The notes below the pieces were generated by a model. The model had not been told where the DNA came from. It saw only the letters and a list, made by a program, of their open reading frames with translations, and ran no database searches. A stretch of 64,000 nt of DNA from an uncultured Neisseriaceae bacterium (GTDB lineage: Bacteria > Pseudomonadota > Gammaproteobacteria > Burkholderiales > UBA11063): NCBI GenBank assembly GCA_937872505.1, contig CALMTA010000137.1:132-64131 (forward strand), in the 5' to 3' direction. Shown piece after piece: positions 6,866-57,661 of the stretch. Made by a program: the position numbers and the translations under genes. The first letter of the stretch is position 1. The number at the start of each line of letters is the position of its first letter.

Positions 6866-7243
6866 ATGGCAAAAAGAACTCATTGTGATATTATCATAGC
6901 TTGGGCTAATGATGATACAATAGAAATAGAAGTCAAATATAATAAAACAGGACAATGGTGTAATATACAGTGTCCTTCTTGGCTTCCTTTAAATGAATAT
7001 AGAATTAAAAAAAAACCTGTGTATAGACCCTTTACTTATGAAGAATTATGTAGTAAAATAGGAATGATTGTTGAAAGTATTTCGGGTATGGGTAATGGTC
7101 AAGGAATAATTGTAGCTGTATCAGAATTAAATTCTAATGAACCCTTTGCTCAAATAGGTTGTGGACAACATCTTAGTGCAGAAAAATTATTAAAACGATA
7201 TAAATTTAAAGAAACAGGTTTACCTTGTGGGGTAAAAATTTAA
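6866..7243 (+). CDS. hypothetical phage protein
   Basis: 125-aa ORF. Confidence 0.55.
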   Translation: MAKRTHCDIIIAWANDDTIEIEVKYNKTGQWCNIQCPSWLPLNEYRIKKKPVYRPFTYEELCSKIGMIVESISGMGNGQGIIVAVSELNSNEPFAQIGCGQHLSAEKLLKRYKFKETGLPCGVKI

Positions 7244-7256
7244 AAAAAACAAACAA

Positions 7257-7529
7257 ATGAAAACAACACTTTCAAAACATCTTATTTTATTGTCATTTAT
7301 TATAATGATAATAATGTTAAACTCTTGCAAACCAAAAACAGATTATTTAGAAACAGTAGACATAACTTATAGTAAAAGTAAAACAGTTATTATTGATGGT
7401 ATAATTTATGCTAATTTTATTGTAATAGATAGCTGTCAATATATAATTGGTAATTATAGTGGAACTAGTAATTATTTTTTAACTCATAAAGGCAATTGTC
7501 AAAATTGCTTAAAAAACAAGTGCAAATAA
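7257..7529 (+). CDS. putative lipoprotein
   Basis: basic N-terminus, hydrophobic stretch, lipobox LNS-C at residue 24. Confidence 0.6.
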   Translation: MKTTLSKHLILLSFIIMIIMLNSCKPKTDYLETVDITYSKSKTVIIDGIIYANFIVIDSCQYIIGNYSGTSNYFLTHKGNCQNCLKNKCK

Positions 7530-7530
7530 A

Positions 7531-8094
7531 ATGGCAATTACTAACAAACAAGTAAAGGCGTGGACTGATTATTTTAACAGTCTATCTAAGGAAGAAAAAA
7601 AAGTAGCTCTTGCAAAAGATGCAATAGCTCAGATAAAAGCTGGTAGAACTATTCCTACTAATGTAACTTATTTTAAAAGTTTGCAAGATGAAGATTTTGA
7701 TATACAAAAAAATATAGATAAAATAAAATGTGAAGTTTGTGCTTTAGGTTGTTTATTTATTTCTTATATTAAATATAATAATAAATATAATACTAAAGAT
7801 TTAGAAGAAGATTTAATAGATGAAATTATTTTGGAAGATTTATCAAAGTATTTTACAGAAAAAGAATTAGTATTAATAGAACTTGCTTTTGAAAAATGGA
7901 GTTATGATGCCTTTTTAGATTTTGATACAAAAATATCACGAGGTATTGCTGCTGACAGGTACGTAGAAGAATTAGATATTACAGACGAAGAAATTGACAT
8001 GGCTTCTGAATTTAATGGTGATAGAAATGCCGATGAAGTATTAATAGAAATTTGTAAAAACATTATTAAAAATAAAGGAAAGTTTGTATTATGA
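7531..8094 (+). CDS. hypothetical protein
   Basis: 187-aa ORF. Confidence 0.55.
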   Translation: MAITNKQVKAWTDYFNSLSKEEKKVALAKDAIAQIKAGRTIPTNVTYFKSLQDEDFDIQKNIDKIKCEVCALGCLFISYIKYNNKYNTKDLEEDLIDEIILEDLSKYFTEKELVLIELAFEKWSYDAFLDFDTKISRGIAADRYVEELDITDEEIDMASEFNGDRNADEVLIEICKNIIKNKGKFVL

Positions 8095-9086
8095 TAAAAA
8101 TAATAGCAATAAAAACAGATACAGATTATTTAATTTCAGATAATACTGAAAATAAAGGATATTATAGTTCTTATTTACACAATTTGTTTTTTGATGGTGT
8201 AAAACCTGAAAAAACATTTAAATCAGATTGGTTTAAAATTAAAAATAAACCTGTTAAAATAGAAAGAGAAGTTATATCTCCATCTATAAATAAAAGATTT
8301 GAATTAAAATCTGAATTTGATAAAGGTGTTTTTAAAAAGGTTTGGTTATATTCTGAAGCTTACGATGAAGATTCTGAAATTGTTGATGAATTTAAAGATA
8401 TTAGAGTATTATATGATTATAAAGAAGATAAACAACCTAATACTTTAGAGAGTATAGAATTTGAATGGAAGACACTATTAGAAATAGAAGTATACACAGA
8501 ACCTCAAGGATTTAGTTATAAAACAATAGGTAAATGGCATAATGATGTTTCTCCATCTGTCACGCAAAGTAATTTAGAATATAATATTTTATCTCAAGTT
8601 TTAACTCCTTCTATACTTTTACATACACAACCTTGTAAATTAAGTAGTAAAGCAACATATGATATTATAAGAGCTTTTATTAAAGAAAATATAAATCCAA
8701 GAGTAGCTGAAATTAAAAGTGATTATGATTTTTGTTTTTCTGTTCATAAAAAAATATCTATAGCAAAACCTTATACTTATCAAATAGATGTAAATTCTTC
8801 TATATTTGGAGGAAGAAAAAAGAAGCCTAAATATGAAACAAGGCTTGTAGATAAAAAAAGTATACAGATATTTGAAATGACCCATAATCAAGCTGGAGGA
8901 AATGGTAGAGGTTATGATAAATATACATTAGTAACTCCTTTTGAAGCTGAAAATCAAGAAGCATTAAAAAAATATATAGATGCTTATTTAGAACATTTAA
9001 TTAATGTTATTAATGAACCTCTTTGTGAATGTGACAAATGTAATGGAACAGGTGTATTATTTGATCAAGAAATTGAGAAAATATGA
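8091..9086 (+). CDS. hypothetical protein with C-terminal CxxCxGxG zinc-binding motif
   Basis: ends LCECDKCNGTG. Confidence 0.55.
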   Translation: MIKIIAIKTDTDYLISDNTENKGYYSSYLHNLFFDGVKPEKTFKSDWFKIKNKPVKIEREVISPSINKRFELKSEFDKGVFKKVWLYSEAYDEDSEIVDEFKDIRVLYDYKEDKQPNTLESIEFEWKTLLEIEVYTEPQGFSYKTIGKWHNDVSPSVTQSNLEYNILSQVLTPSILLHTQPCKLSSKATYDIIRAFIKENINPRVAEIKSDYDFCFSVHKKISIAKPYTYQIDVNSSIFGGRKKKPKYETRLVDKKSIQIFEMTHNQAGGNGRGYDKYTLVTPFEAENQEALKKYIDAYLEHLINVINEPLCECDKCNGTGVLFDQEIEKI

Positions 9087-9089
9087 AAA

Positions 9090-9278
9090 ATGGATAAATT
9101 GAAAAAACTTCAACAAATTATATTAAATTTTACTTATAAATATCCTCTTATTTGTTGGATAATTATATTATTAATATTTAATATAATTTGTTTTCTTATA
9201 AACGAAAGATTATTGAATACATTAACTAATATAATTATTTTATTATGGGGTTCAGCACTCCAATTAAATAGAAATTAA
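9090..9278 (+). CDS. small membrane protein
   Basis: two hydrophobic segments in 62 aa. Confidence 0.5.
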   Translation: MDKLKKLQQIILNFTYKYPLICWIIILLIFNIICFLINERLLNTLTNIIILLWGSALQLNRN

Positions 9279-9282
9279 ACAT

Positions 9283-9513
9283 ATGAGTTTAAGACAAAAA
9301 TATACTGATAAAGAGTGGCAGGATTTTGAAAAAAAAATAAAAGAAGATAGAGAAAATGGAAAACCTGATGAAATATTACTGTATTTATCTGTATGGAATA
9401 AAGATGTAATTGAATTAAGAAAAATTAGAACTGCTCTCTCACCTTTTTATAATGATCATAGTTTATCAATTTTAGATAAATGGATTAATTGGAAAACTAA
9501 TAATAATGATTGA
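9283..9513 (+). CDS. hypothetical protein
   Basis: 76-aa ORF. Confidence 0.5.
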   Translation: MSLRQKYTDKEWQDFEKKIKEDRENGKPDEILLYLSVWNKDVIELRKIRTALSPFYNDHSLSILDKWINWKTNNND

Positions 9514-9706
9514 ATTAATTCCTACTGAAAATTGTCAATGTGGTACATGCAGTCTTTACAGAAAAATTAATACTATTAAGAACTTAGATGATTTATTAAA
9601 ATGTAAAGAAATATATCTTTACTTAAAAAAAGGAGTAGCTGGTCCAAGAATAGACAAAGCTGGTTATTTAATTTCTGAAAAACTAAAACAAATAGAAATA
9701 AAATGA
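9506..9706 (+). CDS. hypothetical protein
   Basis: 66-aa ORF with CQCGTC motif, overlapping neighbours. Confidence 0.45.
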   Translation: MIELIPTENCQCGTCSLYRKINTIKNLDDLLKCKEIYLYLKKGVAGPRIDKAGYLISEKLKQIEIK

Positions 9707-10404
9707 TTGAAAAAATTTGGGTTATTTCTGATACCCATACAAAACATTCAGAATTAAGAATTCCCGATGTTGATATTGTTATTCATGCGGGAGACATGAC
9801 TAATCAAAAAGGACCACTAAATAATAATGAAGCATTTAGTTTTATTAAATGGTTTGATAATTTAAGTATTAATAAAAAAGTATTAATTGCTGGTAATCAC
9901 GATTCAACTTTTTTTAATAAAGAAATTATATTTCCTAAATATTATTTAGAAGACAAATTAATAAAATATAAAAAGTGGTTAATATATGGTACTCCTTATA
10001 CACCTAAATTTTATAATTGGTATTTTATGTTAACTAAAGAGCAAGAAATAACTTGGGCTAAGAATATACCACCTTGTGATATTTTAGTTACACACGGTCC
10101 TCCTAAATTTATATTAGATAGTGTATATAGAGAAGATTATGATTTATATGAACATTGTGGTTCTGTAGAATTATATAATAGAGTTAATAAACTTAAACCT
10201 AAATTACATATAGTAGGACATATTCATAGTTCTTATAATAAAAAGTATCCTGAAAATAATGGAGTGTTTTTTAATGGTAATACTTGGTTTATAAATGCAA
10301 GTTGTTGTAGTGACGGTTATAAGTTACCATTAACTTCGCATGGTTGGATTGTAGAAGTAAACATTGATACTAAAGAAATAGTAAAGATATATAGAAATAT
10401 ATAA
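9703..10404 (+). CDS. calcineurin-like metallophosphoesterase
   Basis: ISDTH, IHAGD, IAGNHD, LVTHGPP, VGHIH: all five motifs. Confidence 0.9.
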   Translation: MIEKIWVISDTHTKHSELRIPDVDIVIHAGDMTNQKGPLNNNEAFSFIKWFDNLSINKKVLIAGNHDSTFFNKEIIFPKYYLEDKLIKYKKWLIYGTPYTPKFYNWYFMLTKEQEITWAKNIPPCDILVTHGPPKFILDSVYREDYDLYEHCGSVELYNRVNKLKPKLHIVGHIHSSYNKKYPENNGVFFNGNTWFINASCCSDGYKLPLTSHGWIVEVNIDTKEIVKIYRNI

Positions 10405-11887: not shown

Positions 11888-14746
11888 ATGAATAATATAA
11901 TTACACCTTGGGGAGAAATAGGATATATAGTATTTAAAAGAACATATTCAAGGAGACTAAAAGAAGACGATCCCAATAGTGAAACAGAAGAATTTATAGA
12001 TGTTATTAATAGAGAATTATTAGCTATATCTAAACAGTTAAAATTGAAATTAACTGATGATGAAATAGATTTTTATAGAAATACAAGATTATTATTAAAG
12101 TGGTCAGTAGCAGGAAGATTTATGTGGCAATTAGGCACTAAAACAGTTAATGATTTAGGATTAACAAGTTTACAAAACTGTGCTGGTGTAGTAGTAGATA
12201 ATCCTATAAGACCTTTTACTTGGGCAATGGAACTTCTAATGTTGGGTTGTGGTGTAGGCTTCAATATTCAAAAAGAGTATGTTTATCAATTACCTAAACT
12301 TAAGAAAAAAATAAAAATAGAAAGATTAGACACAAAAGATGCTAACTTTATATTACCAGACACACGAGAAGGGTGGGTCAAACTTTTGGGAAAAACATTA
12401 AAAGCACATTTTTATAGTGGAGAAGGATTTACTTATTCTACACAGTTAATTAGAAGTAAAGGAGCTGCTATAAAAGGATTTGGTGGATTATCAAGTGGTC
12501 CAGAAGAATTATGTAATGGCATTAATGATATTCATAATATTTTAAATAGTAGGTCTAATCAAAAATTAAGACCTATAGACTGTTTGGATATAATGAATAT
12601 TATTGGTTCTATTGTAGTAGCTGGTAATGTACGTAGGTCAGCACAAATAGCTATTGGAGATTATGATGATTTAGAGTTTTTAAAAGCTAAAAGATGGGAT
12701 TTAGGACAAATACCTAATTGGCGAGCAATGTCCAATAATTCTGTAGCTTGTGATAATATTGAAAATTTACCCATTGAGTTTTGGCAAACTTACGAACAAG
12801 GTGAACCTTATGGTTTGATTAATCTAAGATTAGCAAGATTAGTTGGTAGAACAGGAGAAACACAATATAGTGATAAAGATACAGTAGTTTTTAATCCTTG
12901 TTTTACATCAGATACAAAAATATTAACACCAGAAGGATATGTTGAAATAGGTAAAAATGTAGGTGAGTTAGAATTAATTAATAAAGAAGGTTTAATTGTG
13001 AATGGAAATATTTGGTCCAATGGTTTTAAAACTGTTATTGAAATACTTACTTCACAAAAAAATAAATTAAAATGTACTCCTGATCACATATTTATGTTAA
13101 ATGACGGTTCTGAATGTACTGCTATAGAATTATTAGGTAAAAGAATTATGCCATATTTTAGTATAAATGAAGAAATTAGTGAGTATACTAAATATGGTTT
13201 TATTCAAGGAGATGGTAATTTAACAAGGTTAAACTCTGAACCTCATAAAGGGCTTGAAATAAATATAGGTGAAAATGATTATGACATTTTTGAGTTATTT
13301 GACATTGAAAAAGAAGAAAATAAAAGAAGTTATTATACATCTGGATTTAATGAAATTTTAAAAATTTTAGGTTTTGACTCTTCTGTATTACCTATAAGAA
13401 GAATGCCAAATACTTTTTCGTTTTGGAGCAATAAAGATAAATTAATGTTTTTAAAAGGAATGTATTCTGCAAATGGCTCCATTATTAAAAATCATAGAAT
13501 TTCATATAAAACAGTTTCTCAAAAACTAGCATTAGAATTACAAGAGGCATTATTGCAATTTGATATATGTTCTTATATAACTATTAATAAGGAAAAAGAA
13601 GTTTTATTTTCAAACGGTAATTACTCTTGTAAAGAATCTTATGATATAAATATTTCTAAATATGATTCAATATTACAATTTGCTAAATTAATAGGATTTG
13701 TCCATAAATATAAAAATGAGTCTTTAAGAGAATTAATTTTAGCAAAATCTCCTAAAGTAATAAGTATTAAAGATGTTGGTTATCAAGAAGTCTTTGATTT
13801 TAACTTACAAGATGACACTCATTGGGGAGTTATAGATGGTTTAATAGCACATAACTGCTCCGAACAGTCTTTACACAATTATGAAACTTGTTGTTTAAGT
13901 GAAGTATTTTTACCTAATATAGAATCTTATGAAGAATTATTAAAAATATTAGAGATTACGTATAAAGTAAATAAACATAGTTTAGCTATATCATGTAATA
14001 TAAAGGAAACAGAAGAAATTGTTCATAAAAATATGAGAATGGGTATTGGAATGACTGGTATTTTACAAGCAACAGAAAAACAAAGAAGTTGGTTAAAAAA
14101 TGCTTATATTTGGTTAAGAGAATTTGATAAAATTTATTCTAAAGAAAATAACTTCCCAACAAGTATTAAACTTACTACTGTAAAACCGAGTGGAAGTCTT
14201 TCTTTACTTGCAGGTGTAACTCCTGGAATACATCCGAATCCTGCTGGTCCTTATTATATAAGGAGAGTTAGAATGGCAGCTAATTCTGTTTTAGTAAACT
14301 CTTGTCGAGAACATGGTTTTTTAACAGAGCATCAAATTAATTTTGATGGTAGTGAAGATAAATCAACTATTGTAGTTAGTTTTCCTTGTAAAGTTTCTGA
14401 AGATACTCCTATTGCAGCAAATTATGGATGGAAAGAACAAATAGAAATGGTTAGGAAAATTCAATCAGAATGGAGTGATAATTCTGTTAGTTGTACAATT
14501 TATTATAAAAAAGAAGATTTAGAAGATATCAAAGCATATTTAAAAACTTATTATGAAGATAACTTTAAAACATTATCTTTTTTATTATATCACGGTCATG
14601 GTTTTATACAAGCTCCTTACGAAACTATAGACAAGGAAACTTATGAAAAAATGGTTAGCACCATTAGACCTATTACCAGTATTAATGTTAAAGAAAAAGA
14701 TTTTAATATAGATGAATGTGAGAATGGTGCATGTCCTATTAAATAA
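11888..14746 (+). CDS. nrdJ: class II (adenosylcobalamin-dependent) ribonucleotide reductase, intein-containing
   Basis: VFKRTYSR, AGRFMWQLG, LQNCA, AGNVRRSA, NP[intein]CSEQ, ETCCLSE, TVKPSGS, C-terminal CENGACPIK. Confidence 0.93.
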   Translation: MNNIITPWGEIGYIVFKRTYSRRLKEDDPNSETEEFIDVINRELLAISKQLKLKLTDDEIDFYRNTRLLLKWSVAGRFMWQLGTKTVNDLGLTSLQNCAGVVVDNPIRPFTWAMELLMLGCGVGFNIQKEYVYQLPKLKKKIKIERLDTKDANFILPDTREGWVKLLGKTLKAHFYSGEGFTYSTQLIRSKGAAIKGFGGLSSGPEELCNGINDIHNILNSRSNQKLRPIDCLDIMNIIGSIVVAGNVRRSAQIAIGDYDDLEFLKAKRWDLGQIPNWRAMSNNSVACDNIENLPIEFWQTYEQGEPYGLINLRLARLVGRTGETQYSDKDTVVFNPCFTSDTKILTPEGYVEIGKNVGELELINKEGLIVNGNIWSNGFKTVIEILTSQKNKLKCTPDHIFMLNDGSECTAIELLGKRIMPYFSINEEISEYTKYGFIQGDGNLTRLNSEPHKGLEINIGENDYDIFELFDIEKEENKRSYYTSGFNEILKILGFDSSVLPIRRMPNTFSFWSNKDKLMFLKGMYSANGSIIKNHRISYKTVSQKLALELQEALLQFDICSYITINKEKEVLFSNGNYSCKESYDINISKYDSILQFAKLIGFVHKYKNESLRELILAKSPKVISIKDVGYQEVFDFNLQDDTHWGVIDGLIAHNCSEQSLHNYETCCLSEVFLPNIESYEELLKILEITYKVNKHSLAISCNIKETEEIVHKNMRMGIGMTGILQATEKQRSWLKNAYIWLREFDKIYSKENNFPTSIKLTTVKPSGSLSLLAGVTPGIHPNPAGPYYIRRVRMAANSVLVNSCREHGFLTEHQINFDGSEDKSTIVVSFPCKVSEDTPIAANYGWKEQIEMVRKIQSEWSDNSVSCTIYYKKEDLEDIKAYLKTYYEDNFKTLSFLLYHGHGFIQAPYETIDKETYEKMVSTIRPITSINVKEKDFNIDECENGACPIK
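12899..13855 (+). mobile_element. intein (319 aa) with LAGLIDADG endonuclease in nrdJ
   Basis: starts CFTSDTKILT, ends GLIAHN followed by +1 Cys; internal YGFIQGDG and FLKGMYSANG; removal restores FNPCSEQ. Confidence 0.92.
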
Positions 14747-49813: not shown

Positions 49814-50047
49814 ATGTCAGAACGTATTATAAATGAAAAAGATTATTATAGTTTTGTAGAACAGGCAGAAAATCTTGTTATAAATAATCCTTCTTTAAGA
49901 TTAGGTCAATGTTTATTTAATATATTTTTTGAAAACTATCCTGATATTATTAATAAAATAAAAAACACTGATAAAGATCCTTTTTATAACAATAACAATA
50001 TAGTAAAATTTTTAAATTATATAAAAAAACATGTCAATTATTATTAA
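49814..50047 (+). CDS. hypothetical phage protein
   Basis: LRLGQ.LFN..DPFY motif typical of a small phage family. Confidence 0.55.
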   Translation: MSERIINEKDYYSFVEQAENLVINNPSLRLGQCLFNIFFENYPDIINKIKNTDKDPFYNNNNIVKFLNYIKKHVNYY

Positions 50048-50756
50048 AAATAACATAGAAGTACAAGACATAAGATTAGGAAGAATAGAAGAATTTGACC
50101 AAAGAAGTTTAAACTTTCCTATAACTACCGTTTTAAAAACAGGTGTTAAAAGAAATCGCATATGGAGATGTACTGAAAATTATGACCAAGGAAATATTGG
50201 TGCTTGTGTAGCTTTTTCTATAGCTCACGAATTAGCAGCTACTCCAGTTGAAGTATTAGGTCTGAAAAATAACTATATAATAGAACAAATATATTGGGAA
50301 GCTCAAAAAATAGACCCTTGGGCAGGAGGAGCATATCCATCTGCTAGTCCTAAATATGAAGGTACGTCAGTCTTAGCTGGTGTTAAAATTGCACAAAAGT
50401 TAGGATATTTTGAACAATATAGGTGGGCTTTTGGTTTAAATGATGTACTATTAGGTTTATCAAGTAGTGGACCCTGTGTCTTAGGTATTAAATGGTATTC
50501 TAATATGAGCATTCCTGATAGTAAAAACTTTATAACTCCTACAGGTCAACTACAAGGTGGACATGCTATTTTAGCAAGAGGCGTTGATTGGAATAATAAA
50601 CATGTTATTTTACATAACTCTTGGGGAAAGAATTGGGGAGATAAAGGTAATTGCTATATTAAGTTTGAAGATTTAGAATTATTACTAAAAGATAATGGTG
50701 AAGCAGTATTCTTTAGTCAAAGAAAAAATCCTTATATTTTAAAACCTAAAAAATAG
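50031..50756 (+). CDS. papain-like (C1) cysteine peptidase
   Basis: DQGNIGACVAFS (Q/C), GGHAIL (H), HNSWGKNWGDKG (N). Confidence 0.9.
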   Translation: MSIIIKNNIEVQDIRLGRIEEFDQRSLNFPITTVLKTGVKRNRIWRCTENYDQGNIGACVAFSIAHELAATPVEVLGLKNNYIIEQIYWEAQKIDPWAGGAYPSASPKYEGTSVLAGVKIAQKLGYFEQYRWAFGLNDVLLGLSSSGPCVLGIKWYSNMSIPDSKNFITPTGQLQGGHAILARGVDWNNKHVILHNSWGKNWGDKGNCYIKFEDLELLLKDNGEAVFFSQRKNPYILKPKK

Positions 50757-50780
50757 TATATCTAAAAAATATATTTTAAC

Positions 50781-50829
50781 AAAAAATCACCTGTTACTAA
50801 ATAGTTTATTAAGTTTCAGGTGATTTTTT
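50781..50829 (+). terminator. intrinsic terminator-like hairpin
   Basis: AAAAAATCACCTG 50781-50793 / CAGGTGATTTTTT 50817-50829. Confidence 0.65.
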
Positions 50830-50841
50830 AATATAATTATA

Positions 50842-53800
50842 ATGAATTATATAGTAACTAAAAACAAAGAATATTTTCAAAAAATTGGAGAATATTTATA
50901 TTGTAAATTAGAAGATATAGTTTTACCAGATAAAATATCTTTTGATACAGAAACTACTGGATAAATAAAATATAAATATAAACCTAATTTTAATTATTTA
51001 TTATACTTTTAAGCTGTATATTTGTGAATAAATATCACAATTATGCAAGTAGACATAGAAGATAAAAAGAACTTTAAACTAAAAGGAATATATGGAATAG
51101 TAAATATTTTAAATAATAAAATATATATAGGTTCTACTTTAAATTCTTTTTATGATAGGTTCAAAAAGCATAAAAACTTATTATTAAAAAATAAACATCC
51201 CAATAAATATTTACAAAATAGTGTAAATAAACATGGAATAAATAATTTTAAGTTTTTTATAATAGAAATAGAAGATAATATTGAAATTATACGGTTCAGA
51301 GAATCTTTTTACATAGATAATAAAAACAGTGTGAAAAAAGGTTATAATATATCTAATCAAACAACTTGTCCTCCTTCAAACAAAGAAATAAGACTTAAAA
51401 TAAGTGAAACTTTAAAACACAAGCATAAAAATGATTGTGTTTTTAGGCAGGAATTTTTAAAGTTAGCAGAAAAAAGAAAAGGAAAACCTTCTTGGAACAA
51501 AGGTTTAATTTGTTCAAATATCTCCAATGCAAGAAAAAAAATGTTTGATGATATAGAAGTATATGATAATAATATGAAATATTTTGGAACATTTTCAAAT
51601 CCTGTAGAAATAGAAAAATATAGTAAATCTAAAAAAAATGATTTACCTATACCTATTCTTGTAGAACATTTACTTTTTAATCATAAAGATAAAAGTAAAA
51701 AAAGGATTAAAAAATATTTCGTAAATAATATTATTTATTCTCAAAATATACACAGAGCCATAAGAAACAATACTACTTACAAAGGTTTATTTTTTAAAAA
51801 AGTCCCTTATAATAGTAATGTTATAAGAAAAGAGGATGAATTGCTGGAAAAGCTGGAATGCCAATCAGCAGCCAAGCTATAAATACATTTATAGAAGGTT
51901 CAACGACTACCTGAGCAATAAAGTTTGCTTAATAACAGGAAGTAGCTTATCGTAATGTTTAAGTGAAAAAGCGTCCTCCATCCTTATAGGATGATGATAT
52001 AGTCTGGTCTTATATTAATAAAAAGTATAAGTTAACACAACGTAGATTCTAAGAAACATGATATATTTTGTGCGCAAATAGGTACAGGTAAAGATAATTT
52101 TTTGATTAAATTGTATGATGATGATTATGTTATAAAAGATTTAATAGAATTAATAAAAAACAAAACTTTAGTTATTCATAATGCTTTATTTGATTTAGAG
52201 TTTTTATATAAACATAATTTTTATCCTACAGATATTAAAGATACAATGCTAGCTTCTAAAATTATTTACAACGGTGATTATTTTAATATGCAGCATGATT
52301 TTAAATCCTGTATGAAAAGAGAATTAAACATAGAATATGATAAAACAGAACAAAAAAATATATCTACTGTTAAGCTATCTCAAAGTTCTACTATTTCTTA
52401 CAGTTTCAATGATGTAGACAAATTGCTTGAGTTACATGATAAATTGGAAAATAGTATAATAAAAAATAATCAAACGGCAACTTATAATTTACATTGTAAA
52501 TTTATCAGAGCTTTAGCTTATATAGAAAGATGTGGATTACCTATTTCAGTTAAAAAATGGAAAAATAAAATAAAAGAAGACTTACGTTTATCTTTAAAAT
52601 ATGAAAAAGATATAATTAAATATATATATAAAAATATACCTGAGTTTAGACAAAATCAATTAGATTTATTTGATAATAAAGAAACAGTTAAAGTTTTATT
52701 AACTTCTCCATTACAAATGCTAAAGGTTTTTAACAAGCTTAATATTAATACTAAAGATAAAGATAATAAAGACAGTATAAATGAAGCTGTTATTTCTAAA
52801 ACTAAACACGAGTTTGTTGATTTGTGGTTAAAGTTTCAAGAAAGTAAACACAGAGTAACTACCTTTGGTGAAAATATATTATCTCAAGTAGAAAATGATA
52901 GATTATATACTAACTTTAATCCTATGGTAGATACTGCTCGATTATCAACAAGAAAAGGATATATAAATTTTTTAAACTTTCCTGGAGATTTAAACACAAG
53001 AAATTGTTTTGAAGTAAGAGAAGGTAATAAATTAATAGTTTGTGACTTTTCAGGTCAAGAAACAATTTTAGCAGCTGATTTAAGTAATGATGAAGCTATG
53101 GTAGATTCTGTAGTTCATGGTAAAGATTTACATTGTGCTTTTGCTCGTGTTTTATATCCTGAAATAAAAGATTTAGATGACGAAGATATTATGAAAAATC
53201 ATAAGGATAAAAGAAATGCTGCTAAAGTTCCAAGGTTTGCGTTAAACTAATTTGACCGTTTATATAGTAATATATAAAATGAATTCTGTGAATTGTCTGA
53301 GAAGCCCTAAAAAGGGTAATCAGCAGCCAAGCTTTGTAGAAATACATTGAAGGTTCAACGATCAACACGTACTAACTAAACAGATAATGCTGTAGTTTAT
53401 GAGGTGACAAGAGCGCAGAACACCCTACTCTTTACAAGAGGGGTGATGATATGATCTGAGCTACGCATATATATAAAAGCGTAGAAGTTAGGATAAAGAG
53501 CCTAACGATAACAAAACTGTCAATATGGAGGATCGGCATTTACAATACATGAAAGTAAAGGAATACCTTTAGATGAAGCTTATGAAATAGAGAAAGCCTT
53601 TAAAGAGCTACATAGTGGGTTTTATTCTTGGGGTGAAGTTGAATATCAAAAAGCAATTAAAACAGGCTATATAGTCTCCTCTGACGGTTGGAGATTAAAA
53701 TTACCTAAATATGATTACTTTAAAAGTTTATTATCTCAAATATCTAATATAAGCAAAAATGAATGGCTATTATATAGAGATGGAAAATCTGAATTTACAG

Positions 53801-56384
53801 CAGAATTAAAAGCTAAAGAAAATAAGCTGCCTTATAAAATAACTGATATTCAAGCATATAATTTTTATAAAAGTAGAAGAAAAGATGTATCTAACTTTTA
53901 TAAAATGAAATCAGAATATCAGAGATTGTGTTTGAATAATCCTGAAATGTACGGGTGCGTAATAAGCAATTATTACAGTAGAATTGGGTGAATTGCTGGA
54001 ATGCCTCTAAAATAAAATTAGGTTAATCAGCAGCGAAGGTTTGTAAAAGTAATATTTAAATTGTATCTTTACAAAAAATAAGTAACAAACAACGTTCAGA
54101 GACTAGGAAGTGAGAATACTTATCAATAATCTTCCCACGAGTGCCCAATACCTTAATTATGACAAGAAAAGAATTATTATTATTTACAAAAGAGGTTCAA
54201 TTAGATTACTTTGAAAAAAGAATGACTTTAGATGAATTAGTTGAAAAATATAAAAGAAAAAAAGCAACTATACAGTATCATCTTATGAAAGCTGGTATTA
54301 CCAGAGCAGGTTATTTAAAAAAAAGATACACTAAAGAATATCTTGAAAATGCATTAACTACAACAACTTATAAAACATTAGCAAAAAAATTAAATTGTAC
54401 TTTAGGGGAGTTTAGACGTTTAGTACATTTTCATAATATAAAAAGAAATACTGCTCAGTTTTATAAAAAAAATATAGTTAAAGAAGAATTTTATTCTTCT
54501 AAAAAGTTTGAAAAAGAGTTTTACTACTTTGTTGGATTATTTGTTACAGATGGTTGTTTTTCAGGAAAAAACTCTATGAAAATATCAATAAAAAACAAAG
54601 GGGCTAAAGAGTTATTAACAAGTTTGTCTAGTATTATAGGTAATAATAATGTAAAAATTTATAATTCTGAATTTTATACATTAACACTAACTGATAGAAA
54701 CTTAAAAGAAAAGTTACTTTCTTTAGGTATTCCTGAAAAAGAAAAAACATATTTATTACGAGATATTTATATTCCTAATTCTGACTGTCTTTATTCTTTT
54801 TTGGCAGGAGCACTAGATGGTGATGGTCACATAGACTATCAATTATCTTATTTAGGTTATAGAACTAGTATAGGATATGCTTTATGTAATTATAATATTG
54901 AATTTTTAAAAAATCTTAAACTTAAAATAAAAGATATATTAAACTTTAATTGTATAATACATTTTTCATTAAAAGGAGGACTACCAGTTTTAGTAATAGG
55001 AGCAAGAAATAACTCAAAAAAATTTTTTAATAACTTGTATGCAATTTCACCAATCTTTTTGAAATGTAAATATGAAATATATCAAAGTGTCATAAATAAG
55101 GTAATGATATAGTCCAATCTTATAAGATAGTAAATTATAAGAATTAAGAGATAAAGAACTCTTAAGATAATAAAAATGGTACAAACAAGAGGAGCACATC
55201 AATTAAAACTAGCCGCTTATTTATTATTTACTTGGATATTAGAAAATAACTATGTTGGTGAAGTTCTGATATGCAATCTTATACACGATAAACTAAAAAA
55301 CTTGTTGTGTTTAAATCATGTTAATTGCTGGAATCCCCTAAAGACAACTAAACTACAACATAATTAGAAATAATAGGTGTGAATGTTTTAAAAATTAGTT
55401 GTATATTTGTTTATACAAACAAACATATAATATATAAAAAAAACAAATAATGGGCAATCAGCAGCTATATATTTTAAATGAAGATACAAAACAATTATTA
55501 CTAACAGCTAAATTAGGAGATGGTCATTTAACTATTCCTAAAAATAGTAACAGTAATTCTTGTTATTATACAAATTGTATTTATAAAGAATATTTAGAGC
55601 ATAAAAAAAGTATTCTGAGAGATTTAAGTTTTGATATTACTTATGTAGAAAAAAATGGTTATGCAGGAAAACCTATTTTCTGTTTATCATCTAAGAAGCA
55701 TGTAGAAATAACTAAAATAAAAAATATGTCCTTAGAAGATACTTTAAGCAGTTTGAATGATTACGGAATAGCACTATGGTTTTATGATGATGGAAGTTTG
55801 CATAAAGATAAACTTTTTTACAATCTTAACACACATAGCTTTTCAAAAGAAATTCAAGAAAACCTTTTTATACCATTTTTTAATAAATATAATATTTTTC
55901 CAAAAGTTACAAAAGAAATAAAGAAAAATGGAAATATATATTATTATTTAAGAATAAGTAAGTTTGAAGGCGCTTATGAAATATCTGAAATATTAAATAA
56001 ATATAAAATAAATTGTTATTCATATAAAGTATGGAGTTCAGAGACTAGCCAGAAATGGCGTAAATTGCAAGTGCAGTTGAAAAGCATGACGATAGATATT
56101 AGTAATTCTAAAAAAGGTAAACTTTTAGAATTAGATTCTGTCGAAGATATAGTCCGATCTTTAGAGAAATTTAAAGCGAGTAGATGGTACAAAACTCGGG
56201 CACGTAATAACGAAACGTGTTAAACAAAAAAATGGAGTTGGTTTTAGAATGTCCAGAACATTTAGCAGAAATTGTTAGACAAGCGACTGAAACAATTATG
56301 GTAGAAGCTGGAAATTATTATTTAACAAACATGAAAATAAAAGCCTCGGCTCATATAGGTAACTCTTGGGGAGAAGCAAAATAA
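50842..56384 (+). CDS. polA: family A DNA polymerase with 3'-5' exonuclease, five exons: 50842-50962, 52043-53243, 53520-53943, 55179-55289, 56235-56384 (2007 nt, 668 aa)
   Basis: splicing restores DTETTG|LD (Exo I), CDFSGQE (motif A), KVPRFAF|QYGG (motif B), NNP|VQTRGA and IHD|ELV (motif C) in one continuous frame. Confidence 0.92.
51017..51024 (+). promoter_or_regulatory. Bacteroidota-type -7 element TATATTTG inside intron 1
   Basis: 18 nt before the GIY-YIG ATG at 51043. Confidence 0.55.
51043..51882 (+). CDS. GIY-YIG homing endonuclease (intron-encoded)
   Basis: KGIYGIVNILNNKIYIGST, RFKKH, RE..YI, GYN; NUMOD-like RLKISETLK / KGKPSWNKG. Confidence 0.92.
   Translation: MQVDIEDKKNFKLKGIYGIVNILNNKIYIGSTLNSFYDRFKKHKNLLLKNKHPNKYLQNSVNKHGINNFKFFIIEIEDNIEIIRFRESFYIDNKNSVKKGYNISNQTTCPPSNKEIRLKISETLKHKHKNDCVFRQEFLKLAEKRKGKPSWNKGLICSNISNARKKMFDDIEVYDNNMKYFGTFSNPVEIEKYSKSKKNDLPIPILVEHLLFNHKDKSKKRIKKYFVNNIIYSQNIHRAIRNNTTYKGLFFKKVPYNSNVIRKEDELLEKLECQSAAKL
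53244..53519 (+). mobile_element. group I intron 2 in polA, ORF-less (276 nt)
   Basis: P1 GTT|AAA pairs with TTTGAC (U.G wobble); AATTGTCTGAGAA, AATCAGCAG, GTTCAACGATCA / GATATGATC; terminal G. Confidence 0.9.
53944..55178 (+). mobile_element. group I intron 3 in polA, LAGLIDADG ORF in L8
   Basis: CCT|G with IGS CGGG; AATTGCTGGAA, AATCAGCAG, GTTCAGAGACTA, GATATAGTC; terminal G at 55178. Confidence 0.9.
54159..55112 (+). CDS. double-motif LAGLIDADG homing endonuclease (ATG 54159; in-frame GTG 54141)
   Basis: YFVGLFVTDGCF and FLAGALDGDGHI. Confidence 0.9.
   Translation: MTRKELLLFTKEVQLDYFEKRMTLDELVEKYKRKKATIQYHLMKAGITRAGYLKKRYTKEYLENALTTTTYKTLAKKLNCTLGEFRRLVHFHNIKRNTAQFYKKNIVKEEFYSSKKFEKEFYYFVGLFVTDGCFSGKNSMKISIKNKGAKELLTSLSSIIGNNNVKIYNSEFYTLTLTDRNLKEKLLSLGIPEKEKTYLLRDIYIPNSDCLYSFLAGALDGDGHIDYQLSYLGYRTSIGYALCNYNIEFLKNLKLKIKDILNFNCIIHFSLKGGLPVLVIGARNNSKKFFNNLYAISPIFLKCKYEIYQSVINKVMI
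55402..55409 (+). promoter_or_regulatory. Bacteroidota-type -7 element TATATTTG inside intron 4
   Basis: 40 nt before the endonuclease ATG at 55450. Confidence 0.5.
55450..56223 (+). CDS. LAGLIDADG_2-type homing endonuclease
   Basis: LLLTAKLGDGHL and IALWFYDDGS. Confidence 0.88.
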   Translation: MGNQQLYILNEDTKQLLLTAKLGDGHLTIPKNSNSNSCYYTNCIYKEYLEHKKSILRDLSFDITYVEKNGYAGKPIFCLSSKKHVEITKIKNMSLEDTLSSLNDYGIALWFYDDGSLHKDKLFYNLNTHSFSKEIQENLFIPFFNKYNIFPKVTKEIKKNGNIYYYLRISKFEGAYEISEILNKYKINCYSYKVWSSETSQKWRKLQVQLKSMTIDISNSKKGKLLELDSVEDIVRSLEKFKASRWYKTRARNNETC

Positions 56385-56395
56385 TTTCAACTAAA

Positions 56396-57661
56396 ATGAC
56401 TAGATATAAATTGGAAAAACAAAATAGCTTAGAAGGAGAAAGAGATATGAGTGTTTTACTTAAAGACTATGATAATATTGGTCTTGAAAAAGTTAATAAT
56501 GAAACCTATACTCAAAGAGTGATAAAAGTTGACAAACTAAACTTTACCAATTATACAGGAGAACATTTTCCTGTACATTCTTATATGACTAATAAGTTTA
56601 ATATATTTCCATCTAAGCTAGATATTACTTCAGTTAAAGCCAATAAAGATATAAATTTAGTTAATTTCTTTTTAGAAGAAGGCTTTAGTATAATTTTTAA
56701 AAAAATAGAAACTCGTACTACTAAAATTGACATTACTAACAATAAATTTTATATAAATTCTTATGATAATTATTATGAGCATCCTATAAGAAGTATAGTT
56801 TTTGTTAATGAAGATATGAGAATATTAGTAGATTTATATTGTGAAGAAATTAGTAGTAAAGATAAAGAAGAAATACAAGACAATGTATTAGATAATCCTG
56901 TTGTTACTTACAATATAGAAGTATATTATGATGAAAATATAGGAATACATAACTTTTTAGAAAAACTAAAAACTGTTATTACTGATAGTTGTGTAAAAAA
57001 ATTAGTAGATAATAATAATTATATTTATATTATTACTAATGATTTAAGACTAGATAAATGTGAAATTAAAGATATGAAACTAAATTCTGAAAATTTACCG
57101 TTATACTATAATGATGATTTTATTGAAGTTAGTGATTATCTTTTATCAACTCTTAATGAAAACAGTAAAGCAGGTATAATGTTTTTACATGGTGAGCCAG
57201 GAACTGGTAAAACAAGTTATATTAGATATTTAGTTACTCAGTATAAATATAAATCTATATATGTAACTCCTGATAAATTAAATCTATTAGGGGACAGTGC
57301 TTTCTTACAGCTATTAATTAATTATAAAAATTCTCTTTTAATATTAGAAGATTGTGGAAATATTATTAAAAAAGGAAATCATTCTACAATAGTTAATAAT
57401 TTATTAAACTATAGTGATGGCATTTTAGGAGATATAATTAATGTTAAAATTATTATAACTTTTAATGAAGACATTAATGATATTAGTGATGCTTTTTTGC
57501 GAAACGGTAGATGTTTGTTAAAATATAAATTTAATAAATTGTCTGCTAATAAAGTTAATAAGTTAAATCCTAATTATAATGAAGAAATGACTTTAGGAGA
57601 AATATTTAAACCTAAACAAGATTATATTAACAATACTCAAAAAAATAAAATAGGATTCTAA
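56396..57661 (+). CDS. AAA+ ATPase (BCS1-like; likely start ATG 56396)
   Basis: LHGEPGTGKT (Walker A), LILED (Walker B), LLNYSDG, LRNGR (Arg finger). Confidence 0.88.
   Translation: MTRYKLEKQNSLEGERDMSVLLKDYDNIGLEKVNNETYTQRVIKVDKLNFTNYTGEHFPVHSYMTNKFNIFPSKLDITSVKANKDINLVNFFLEEGFSIIFKKIETRTTKIDITNNKFYINSYDNYYEHPIRSIVFVNEDMRILVDLYCEEISSKDKEEIQDNVLDNPVVTYNIEVYYDENIGIHNFLEKLKTVITDSCVKKLVDNNNYIYIITNDLRLDKCEIKDMKLNSENLPLYYNDDFIEVSDYLLSTLNENSKAGIMFLHGEPGTGKTSYIRYLVTQYKYKSIYVTPDKLNLLGDSAFLQLLINYKNSLLILEDCGNIIKKGNHSTIVNNLLNYSDGILGDIINVKIIITFNEDINDISDAFLRNGRCLLKYKFNKLSANKVNKLNPNYNEEMTLGEIFKPKQDYINNTQKNKIGF

Follow-up and report, generated by a model that had tools for sequence, protein, structure and literature searches.

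Since SPO1, group I introns have been a known feature of phage DNA polymerase genes, and by 2012 no fewer than three insertion sites were on record, the introns described in polA genes being those of SPO1, SP82 and Bastille (I-HmuI, I-HmuII and I-BasI), the T7-like phages PhiI and W31, Pf-WMP3 and phiL7 (PMC3428280). Polymerase genes of the Bastillevirinae contain two or three introns (PMC11878797), and orf142 of Staphylococcus phage Twort has three group I introns with short internal exons, for which exon skipping was shown (Landthaler and Shub 1999, as cited in PMC11878797). Among crAss-like phages, Yutin et al. (2021, PMC7886860) called the density at which group I introns and inteins occur in the Delta and Zeta groups 'unprecedented'; their examples include a major capsid protein (MCP) gene in five fragments and a PolB gene in four, and Zeta-group genes are reported in four to five fragments (PMC7886860). 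In gut jumbo phages, group I introns number 18.5 per genome on average, and transcripts supported about half of the introns that were tested (PMC12880540). Here we analysed a 64-kb stretch (the window, to which all positions refer) of contig C137 (64,324 nt, 23% G+C), in which a polA gene is interrupted four times. An earlier reading of this DNA, made without database searches (the sequence-only reading), had proposed four group I introns in the gene and had called single introns in phage polA established. Our analysis makes it very likely that this is a single essential polA gene and that four group I introns, each splicing itself out independently at the junctions given in that reading, leave an intact mRNA. 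SPO1-type and Bastillevirinae genes have one to three introns, and this gene has four.

The gene, its interruptions and the predicted open reading frames (ORFs) within them are arranged as follows:

50842..50962, + strand: polA exon 1, codons 1-40 plus 1 nt, with the Exo I motif DTETTG; ends in U, with an in-frame TAA directly after it
50963..52042, + strand: intron 1, 1080 nt, assigned to group I (IA2-like), with an endonuclease ORF in the P1 loop
51043..51882, + strand: predicted GIY-YIG homing endonuclease ORF of intron 1, 279 aa, I-TevI-like
52043..53243, + strand: polA exon 2, with Exo II, Exo III, motif A and the first part of motif B
53244..53519, + strand: intron 2, 276 nt, assigned to group I, without an ORF
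53520..53943, + strand: polA exon 3, 424 nt, the remaining motif B through ...LCLNNP
53944..55178, + strand: intron 3, 1235 nt, assigned to group I, with an ORF in the P8 loop
54159..55112, + strand: predicted LAGLIDADG homing endonuclease ORF of intron 3, 317 aa from ATG, double-motif, with an N-terminal helical extension
55179..55289, + strand: polA exon 4, 111 nt, 37 codons, VQTRGA...LIHD
55290..56234, + strand: intron 4, 945 nt, assigned to group I, with an ORF running from P5' through the P6 loop and the 3' core
55450..56223, + strand: predicted LAGLIDADG homing endonuclease ORF of intron 4, 257 aa, double-motif (Pfam LAGLIDADG_2, 6.1e-11)
56235..56384, + strand: polA exon 5, from the E of motif C through the stop codon

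As the sequence-only reading had noted, the list of ORFs over 50842-56384 shows only fragments, and joining the five exons gives 2007 nt that translate without an internal stop into 668 aa; its figure of 3536 intron nucleotides out of 5543 likewise matches the sum of the four introns (1080, 276, 1235 and 945 nt). The spliced product matched both DNA_pol_A (PF00476, 3.3e-39) and DNA_pol_A_exo1 (PF01612, 2.3e-19) in Pfam above the cut-offs. A search of 5.8 billion proteins returned, among the 120 best matches listed, more than 100 uninterrupted PolA homologues, mostly of 664–686 aa, which cover 100% of the product at 57–63% identity. Exo I to III and motifs A, B and C lie within one colinear polypeptide, as expected of a family A polymerase, and residues D35, E37, D375, R431, K435, Y443, H618, D619 and E620 are invariant in an alignment of 18 sequences. 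These data support a complete family A DNA polymerase with 3'-5' exonuclease and polymerase parts, whose catalytic motifs are all intact. Its best matches among named phages belong to the Crassvirales (IAS virus, crAss001 and relatives; ∼30% identity), and judging from these polymerase matches the phage that carries the split gene is crAss-like.

The junctions could be placed without recourse to the RNA. The 18-sequence alignment has no gaps at any of the four, and the residues around them (DTETTG-L, PRFAF-QYGG, LNNP-VQ and HD-E) are conserved or invariant, which fixes the positions by homology, independently of RNA rules. Aligned to its intron-less homologues, a check that the sequence-only reading had suggested, the 668-aa product was colinear from end to end at ∼60% identity, and the insertions indeed fall where they had been placed, at Exo I, motif B, the NNP motif and motif C. 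With the caret marking the splice site, the junctions are DTETTG^L (site 1, phase 1), PRFA-F^QYGG (site 2, phase 2, within the F441 codon), NNP^VQ (site 3, phase 0) and HD^E (site 4, phase 0). At all four, exon position −1 is U and the final intron base is G (the omega G, at 52042, 53519, 55178 and 56234), in line with the rule invoked in the sequence-only reading. Since the junctions were set independently by the protein alignment, and with regional base frequencies of 0.32 for U and 0.15 for G (14.8%), the chance of four terminal G's is about 5e-4. Only junction 3 can be shifted by one base with an identical mRNA, and here the U/G rule selects the position given before.

We then searched the insertions with the Rfam group I model (RF00028, Intron_gpI; cut-off 50 bits) and mapped the helices by hand, scoring complementarity with a script. 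Intron 1 reached 87.9 bits (51777-52025) and intron 2 60.4 bits (53233-53479). Introns 3 and 4 gave partial matches below the cut-off, of 41.3 bits for the 5' half of intron 3 (53982-54149, model positions 48-158) and 29.9 bits for intron 4 (56029-56176), because ORFs split their cores. Complementary helices were found in each: P1 (GGAU/GUCC), P2, P3, P4, P6, P7, P7.1, P7.2, P8 and P9 in intron 1; P1 to P9.1 in intron 2; P1, P2, P3, P4, P5, P6, P7, P7.1, P9 and P9.1 in intron 3, together with a P8 stem that closes the ORF loop (54150-54163 with 55089-55102; 13 of 14 positions paired); and P1, P3, P4, P5, P5a, P5b, P6, P7, P7.1, P8, P9, P9.1 and P9.2 in intron 4. Four core segments are common to all introns, namely J3/4-P4 (AAUUGCUGG; the intron-2 copy has a single bulged U) with P4' (UCAGCA), a two-pair P6 base (GC/GU), J6/7-P7 (GUUCA-R-M-GAYYA) and J8/7-P7' (GAUAU-R-RUC). 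The P3 sequence is unlike in each intron yet paired in each (GAGGAUG/CGUCCUC, UUCUG/CAGAA, AUUGGG/CCCAAU and UCAUG/CAUGA in introns 1 to 4). The P7 pseudoknot with the J8/7 strand (GAUAUAGUC-type) is GACUA/UAGUC in introns 1, 3 and 4, and intron 2 has the compensatory variant GAUCA/UGAUC. Between P7 and P3', introns 1, 3 and 4 have P7.1 and P7.2 hairpins; intron 2 has a P7.1 (ACAG/CUGU) if its P3' is the CAGAA at 53416. For this strand Rfam used a truncated placement (ACAGA), to which we preferred CAGAA for the order P7.1, P3', P8, a choice that is not proven. By Rfam score, by hand-mapped core helices or by both, the assignment of all four interruptions to group I introns is thus supported, as had been claimed for them. 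Their architecture, rather than subgroup-specific models, leads us to call them IA2-like.

In all four introns we could map a P1 helix in which an internal guide pairs with the end of the 5' exon and a U.G wobble marks the splice site, and the identifiable guides reported in the sequence-only reading were recovered. In intron 4, ACACGAU^AA pairs with UUGUUGUGU over 9 bp, with U.G at the splice site, and a P10 of 5 bp (GAGUU/AACUU) is present. Intron 3 pairs CCU^G with CGGG and likewise has a P10 of 5 bp (GUACA/UGUAC), and intron 2 pairs GUU^AAA with UUUGAC. The guides of introns 2, 3 and 4 adjoin the 5' splice site. That of intron 1 (GUCC at 51802-51805, pairing with GGAU over 4 bp) lies ∼840 nt downstream, past the endonuclease ORF and directly 5' of P2, which places the ORF in the P1 loop. 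The position directly 5' of P2 is shared with introns 2 and 3 and with a site-2 intron on a 117-kb JGI contig (L089:8349-9242). The latter shares the layout of intron 1: its ORF precedes the guide GUCGC, which lies immediately 5' of P2 and can pair with the exon end GCGAU of the gene it interrupts, itself otherwise intact. It therefore supports the far-guide reading of intron 1. A nearer candidate (UAUUUGU at ∼51011, with AU^AAAUA) was rejected; it would give only two exon base pairs, and a similar string also occurs upstream of an endonuclease gene that has no ribozyme (locus L072, described below).

Introns 1, 3 and 4 each hold an intact ORF for a predicted homing endonuclease in a peripheral loop (of P1, P8 and P6, respectively), and intron 2 does not. 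The intron-1 ORF matched GIY-YIG in Pfam (7.2e-9), phrog_7168 (1.7e-21) and the catalytic domain of I-TevI (PDB 1LN0, 3e-12), to which it is 42% identical over residues 8–127 (tblastn). Compared with its only full-length relative, its conserved portion stops at ...YKGLFFKKV, and its last 25 codons (51805-51882) cross the guide (P1') and P2 to P6 before the stop, so that translation and ribozyme folding would compete for the same RNA. The intron-3 ORF matched phrog_4645 (2.4e-20) and was only borderline in Pfam. An AlphaFold model (mean confidence score, pLDDT, 89.4) compared by Foldseek with I-Tsp061I (1.2e-8), I-SceI (2e-6) and I-AniI settled its predicted identity as a LAGLIDADG enzyme with an extra N-terminal helical domain. 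Searches of PDB sequences with both LAGLIDADG ORFs gave no usable match, and tblastn of the intron-3 ORF against phage records gave no match. The intron-4 ORF begins in P5' and spans the P6 loop and most of the 3' core.

To place the gene among its relatives, we compared it with other phages. A megablast of the locus against phage records found no match, and pattern scans of IMG/VR built on one protein, be it the spliced PolA or the intron-1 endonuclease, returned nothing, but alignment-based scans did find relatives. In 79 of the 80 best IMG/VR loci of the polymerase clade, polA is uninterrupted. All four sites nevertheless have counterparts elsewhere, and sites 2, 3 and 4 are filled singly or in pairs in other phages. 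At site 2, Leptolyngbya phage Lbo-JY46 (PP438436, L081) has an intron at the identical nucleotide (GCGAU^AAACUAA...GAUAACAAAACUG^U) with a LAGLIDADG ORF; L089 and L094 are also occupied there, and in at least nine protein clusters the sequence breaks off at ...PRFALN or a similar ending. At site 3, crAss cr116_1 (NC_055882, L083) carries a homologous intron (GAAAUG...AAAAUG; P1 CCGAU/GUCGG) located 2 nt further 3', and L094 and L095 have an intron-3-type endonuclease in polA at the site that is occupied in the window; L094 combines introns at sites 2 and 3. At site 4, crAss cr128_1 (NC_055885, L085) and MT835492 have a homologous intron with an endonuclease that is 43–46% identical (46% for cr128_1), and at least five protein clusters end in ...HD plus a few intron-encoded residues, such as ...HDRQNCRV. 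Here P1 co-varies with the exon (ACACGAU/GUUGUGU, CUACGAU/GUUGUAG and CUACGAU/GUCGUAG, two double compensatory changes), as do P3 (UCAUG/CAUGA, CAGUG/CACUG and CGAUG/CAUCG), P7.1 and P9. Rfam found no group I match in L072, L081 or L083, though L081 and L083 hold homologous introns by eye; these were missed because the ORF splits the core. Some fragments of polA from the same clade (P0171, P0161, P0176 and P0156) have other ends: they stop behind motif A (...CDYSGQ, then unrelated residues) or else at ...LEGAD or ...NNHLEIGRAHV. These ends may mark further insertion sites or merely contig ends.

For site 1, the only relative found was L072 (IMGVR_UViG_3300008448_000014, 7001-9973), where no ribozyme accompanies the endonuclease. 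There, the polA N-terminus is present as a 40-aa copy that stops exactly at the exon-1 boundary of the window and is only ∼60% identical to the N-terminus of the resident gene. Next come a GIY-YIG gene of 253 aa, 56% identical to the intron-1 ORF, and a complete, uninterrupted polA of 676 aa. The arrangement suggests that an endonuclease travelled together with exon sequence of its donor, or that it represents a stage before or after its association with a ribozyme. The core of the L089 site-2 intron is closer to intron 1 of the window (51802-52042), with near-identical P7.1, J7.1/7.2 and J7.2/3 strings, than to the site-2 intron of the window, and its P1-loop ORF is a LAGLIDADG and not a GIY-YIG; the pair suggests site switching by a change of guide and an exchange of cargo. 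Introns 2 and 3 share a 3' terminal domain despite their different sites. From the L089 core, this shared domain and the copied 'exon 1' beside the ribozyme-less L072 endonuclease, one could draw a wider picture, which we regard as tentative and on balance doubtful: a few related IA2 ribozyme chassis would have moved among the four catalytic-motif sites of polA in this clade, changing only their guides and swapping their endonuclease cargo, and the gene in the window would be the accumulated end state, its three endonucleases jointly attacking the polymerase genes of co-infecting relatives at several sites.

In the mechanism that we propose for the gene itself, we infer catalysis, endonuclease activity and competitive benefit from the structural and comparative data given above. 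The polA gene would be transcribed as a ∼5.5-kb pre-mRNA, from which the four IA2-like introns would each excise themselves by two-step, guanosine-initiated transesterification, restoring the codons of Exo I, motif B, the N-x-P-x-Q motif and motif C. The three endonucleases would cut intron-less polA alleles of co-infecting relatives, and repair would copy the intron in (homing), while the ORF-less intron 2 could spread by co-conversion with its neighbours, exons 3 and 4 being only 424 and 111 nt long. The sites coincide with catalytic motifs, which would follow from the DNA sequences encoding these being the most conserved and hence the most durable endonuclease targets.

Several observations weigh against splicing of all four introns as proposed. 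Introns 3 and 4 stay under the Rfam threshold, and their structures depend on hand mapping and a few homologues; P1 of intron 1 is limited to 4 bp and would have to bridge an ORF of ∼840 nt; no P10 is recognisable in introns 1 and 2; and intron 2 allows two P3' strands, either CAGAA (53416) or ACAGA (53380). For the endonucleases, activity and homing would follow from family membership and distribution only. Some of these points could mean that the gene is dead or dying, with at least one intron (likeliest intron 1, or intron 4) no longer spliced and the phage relying on another polymerase. The weak long-range P1 of intron 1, the missing P10 helices, the sub-threshold scores and the overlap of the intron-4 ORF with its own 3' core would all fit such decay, and the 64 kb examined are only part of the genome. 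We consider it improbable, given that the five exons keep an open frame and all invariant catalytic residues, all core helices are intact, L089 shares the intron-1 design in an otherwise intact gene and no other polymerase gene was seen within the 64-kb window.

That some of the interruptions are not introns at all, but inteins, gene splits with free-standing endonucleases or short coding gaps bypassed by the ribosome, as known from other split phage polymerases, is brought to mind by L072, in which the intron-1-type endonuclease stands free without a ribozyme. In the window, in-frame stops follow 0, 2, 15 and 25 codons past exons 1 to 4, so that no insertion is translated in frame with both its flanks and none of the four is an intein. 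Recoded stop codons, gene splits and ribosome hopping were dismissed given these early stops and the core helices in every insertion, each of which has P3-P4-P6-P7-P8 elements and a terminal G. Exons 1 and 4, of 40 and 37 codons, moreover lack a start codon or ribosome-binding context of their own, and the Exo I motif is lost without exon 1. We therefore hold this explanation to be very unlikely. The DNA comes from a metagenome bin, and relatives bear the same intron types singly or in pairs, which raises the question of whether an assembly chimera has merged strains with one or two introns each. Against this, MEGAHIT and SPAdes contigs under two European Nucleotide Archive (ENA) accessions are 100% identical over the 7343 nt (49942-57284) that span the whole gene, although the two may stem from the same sample or reads; contigs as long as 93 kb are on record with the exon-2 protein; and the nearest other alleles, at ∼60–68% identity, are too distant for unnoticed merging. 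A chimera is hence extremely unlikely, and self-splicing from an intact gene is the reading that we retain.

The split gene has much in common with described systems. Like the SPO1/Bastille-type and Bastillevirinae polymerase introns, those of the window appear to be IA2-type, lie in conserved polymerase coding sequence and mostly hold the endonuclease in a peripheral loop; unlike those introns, which mostly encode HNH nicking enzymes, they encode one predicted GIY-YIG and two predicted LAGLIDADG enzymes. As in the Delta and Zeta crAss-like phages, a core gene is split by group I introns whose ORFs encode LAGLIDADG and other endonucleases, and annotation is confounded. The Delta and Zeta examples, however, are MCP, PolB, primase and TerL genes, often with recoded stops and with introns spread over many genes, whereas the window uses the standard code and all four introns detected in its 64 kb lie within one polA. 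Twort orf142 is comparable in having several group I introns and short internal exons in a single phage gene, though both gene and host differ. The orf142 introns are not known to contain ORFs. The T4 td intron (IA2, encoding I-TevI) resembles intron 1, whose ORF matches the I-TevI catalytic domain and whose ribozyme has P7.1 and P7.2. The ORF of the td intron is located in the P6 loop; that of intron 1 differs in sitting in the P1 loop, with its last 25 codons overlapping P1' to P6, and the host genes differ as well. The polA genes of cr116_1, cr128_1, MT835492 and Lbo-JY46 have homologous introns at sites 3, 4, 4 and 2, respectively, with shared terminal sequences (GAAAUG...AAAAUG; AAACUAA...GAUAACAAAACUG). 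Unlike the window, they have one intron per gene, and the Lbo-JY46 intron contains an ORF that is absent from intron 2.

The statement in the sequence-only reading that four introns in one gene are unusual stands within the polymerase clade, where 79 of the 80 best IMG/VR loci are uninterrupted and other relatives have one or two introns, but the arrangement is not unprecedented in kind (PMC11878797, PMC7886860). With multi-intron phage polymerase genes and five-fragment crAss-like genes already published, it is a further case of a known kind and reveals no new mechanism. What sets the locus apart is the presence of four introns in one polA, compared with none to two in relatives, the three different endonucleases, the concentration of all detected introns of the 64-kb contig in one gene, and an ORF in the P1 loop of intron 1 that overlaps guide and core. 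The predicted mis-annotation of the polymerase also turned out to be real: gene calls in two public assemblies miss exons 1, 3, 4 and 5, with exon 3 not called at all, and only the 382-aa ORF of exon 2 is recognised as PolA. Similarly, the RefSeq and GenBank records of cr128_1, cr116_1 and Lbo-JY46 list three entries for the gene: a truncated polymerase (named 'DNA polymerase I' or 'putative DNA polymerase'), then either an 'endonuclease' or a 'hypothetical protein', and lastly a small 'hypothetical protein' or another 'DNA polymerase I'. All three genes have one group I intron, homologous to intron 4, 3 and 2 of the window, respectively, and none of these is annotated. Without correct splicing models, such phages cannot be annotated properly, nor their polymerases placed in phylogenies. 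Alleles that naturally carry no, one or two introns can serve for comparison, making this a compact system for studying intron accumulation, the co-conversion of an ORF-less intron, splicing fidelity over exons of 37 to 40 codons and endonuclease-mediated competition between co-infecting phages.

Within its metagenome bin of 2.16 Mb, C137 exceeds all other contigs in both length and A+T content; it uses the standard genetic code. Its long ORFs are all on the + strand and include one of 4792 aa, a ribonucleotide reductase, rIIA/rIIB-like genes and glycosyltransferases. Ribonucleotide reductase genes are a classic target of phage introns and inteins; the one in the window (952 aa, 11888-14746) is uninterrupted. 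Just 5' of the polA start, an inverted repeat (AAAAAAUCACCUG ... CAGGUGAUUUUUU) at 50786-50829 looks like the terminator of the preceding peptidase gene, which means that polA may start its own transcription unit; a promoter and terminator scan added nothing. An Rfam search of the whole bin, partial matches included, found no group I match on C137 outside polA. Elsewhere in the bin lies another group I intron, at G000:C80:920-1201 on the − strand (L096, 68.5 bits). The contig in question (18.9 kb, 38.6% G+C) carries this intron between small ORFs, one of them of the uracil-DNA glycosylase superfamily, and the intron is an element distinct from the phage contig.

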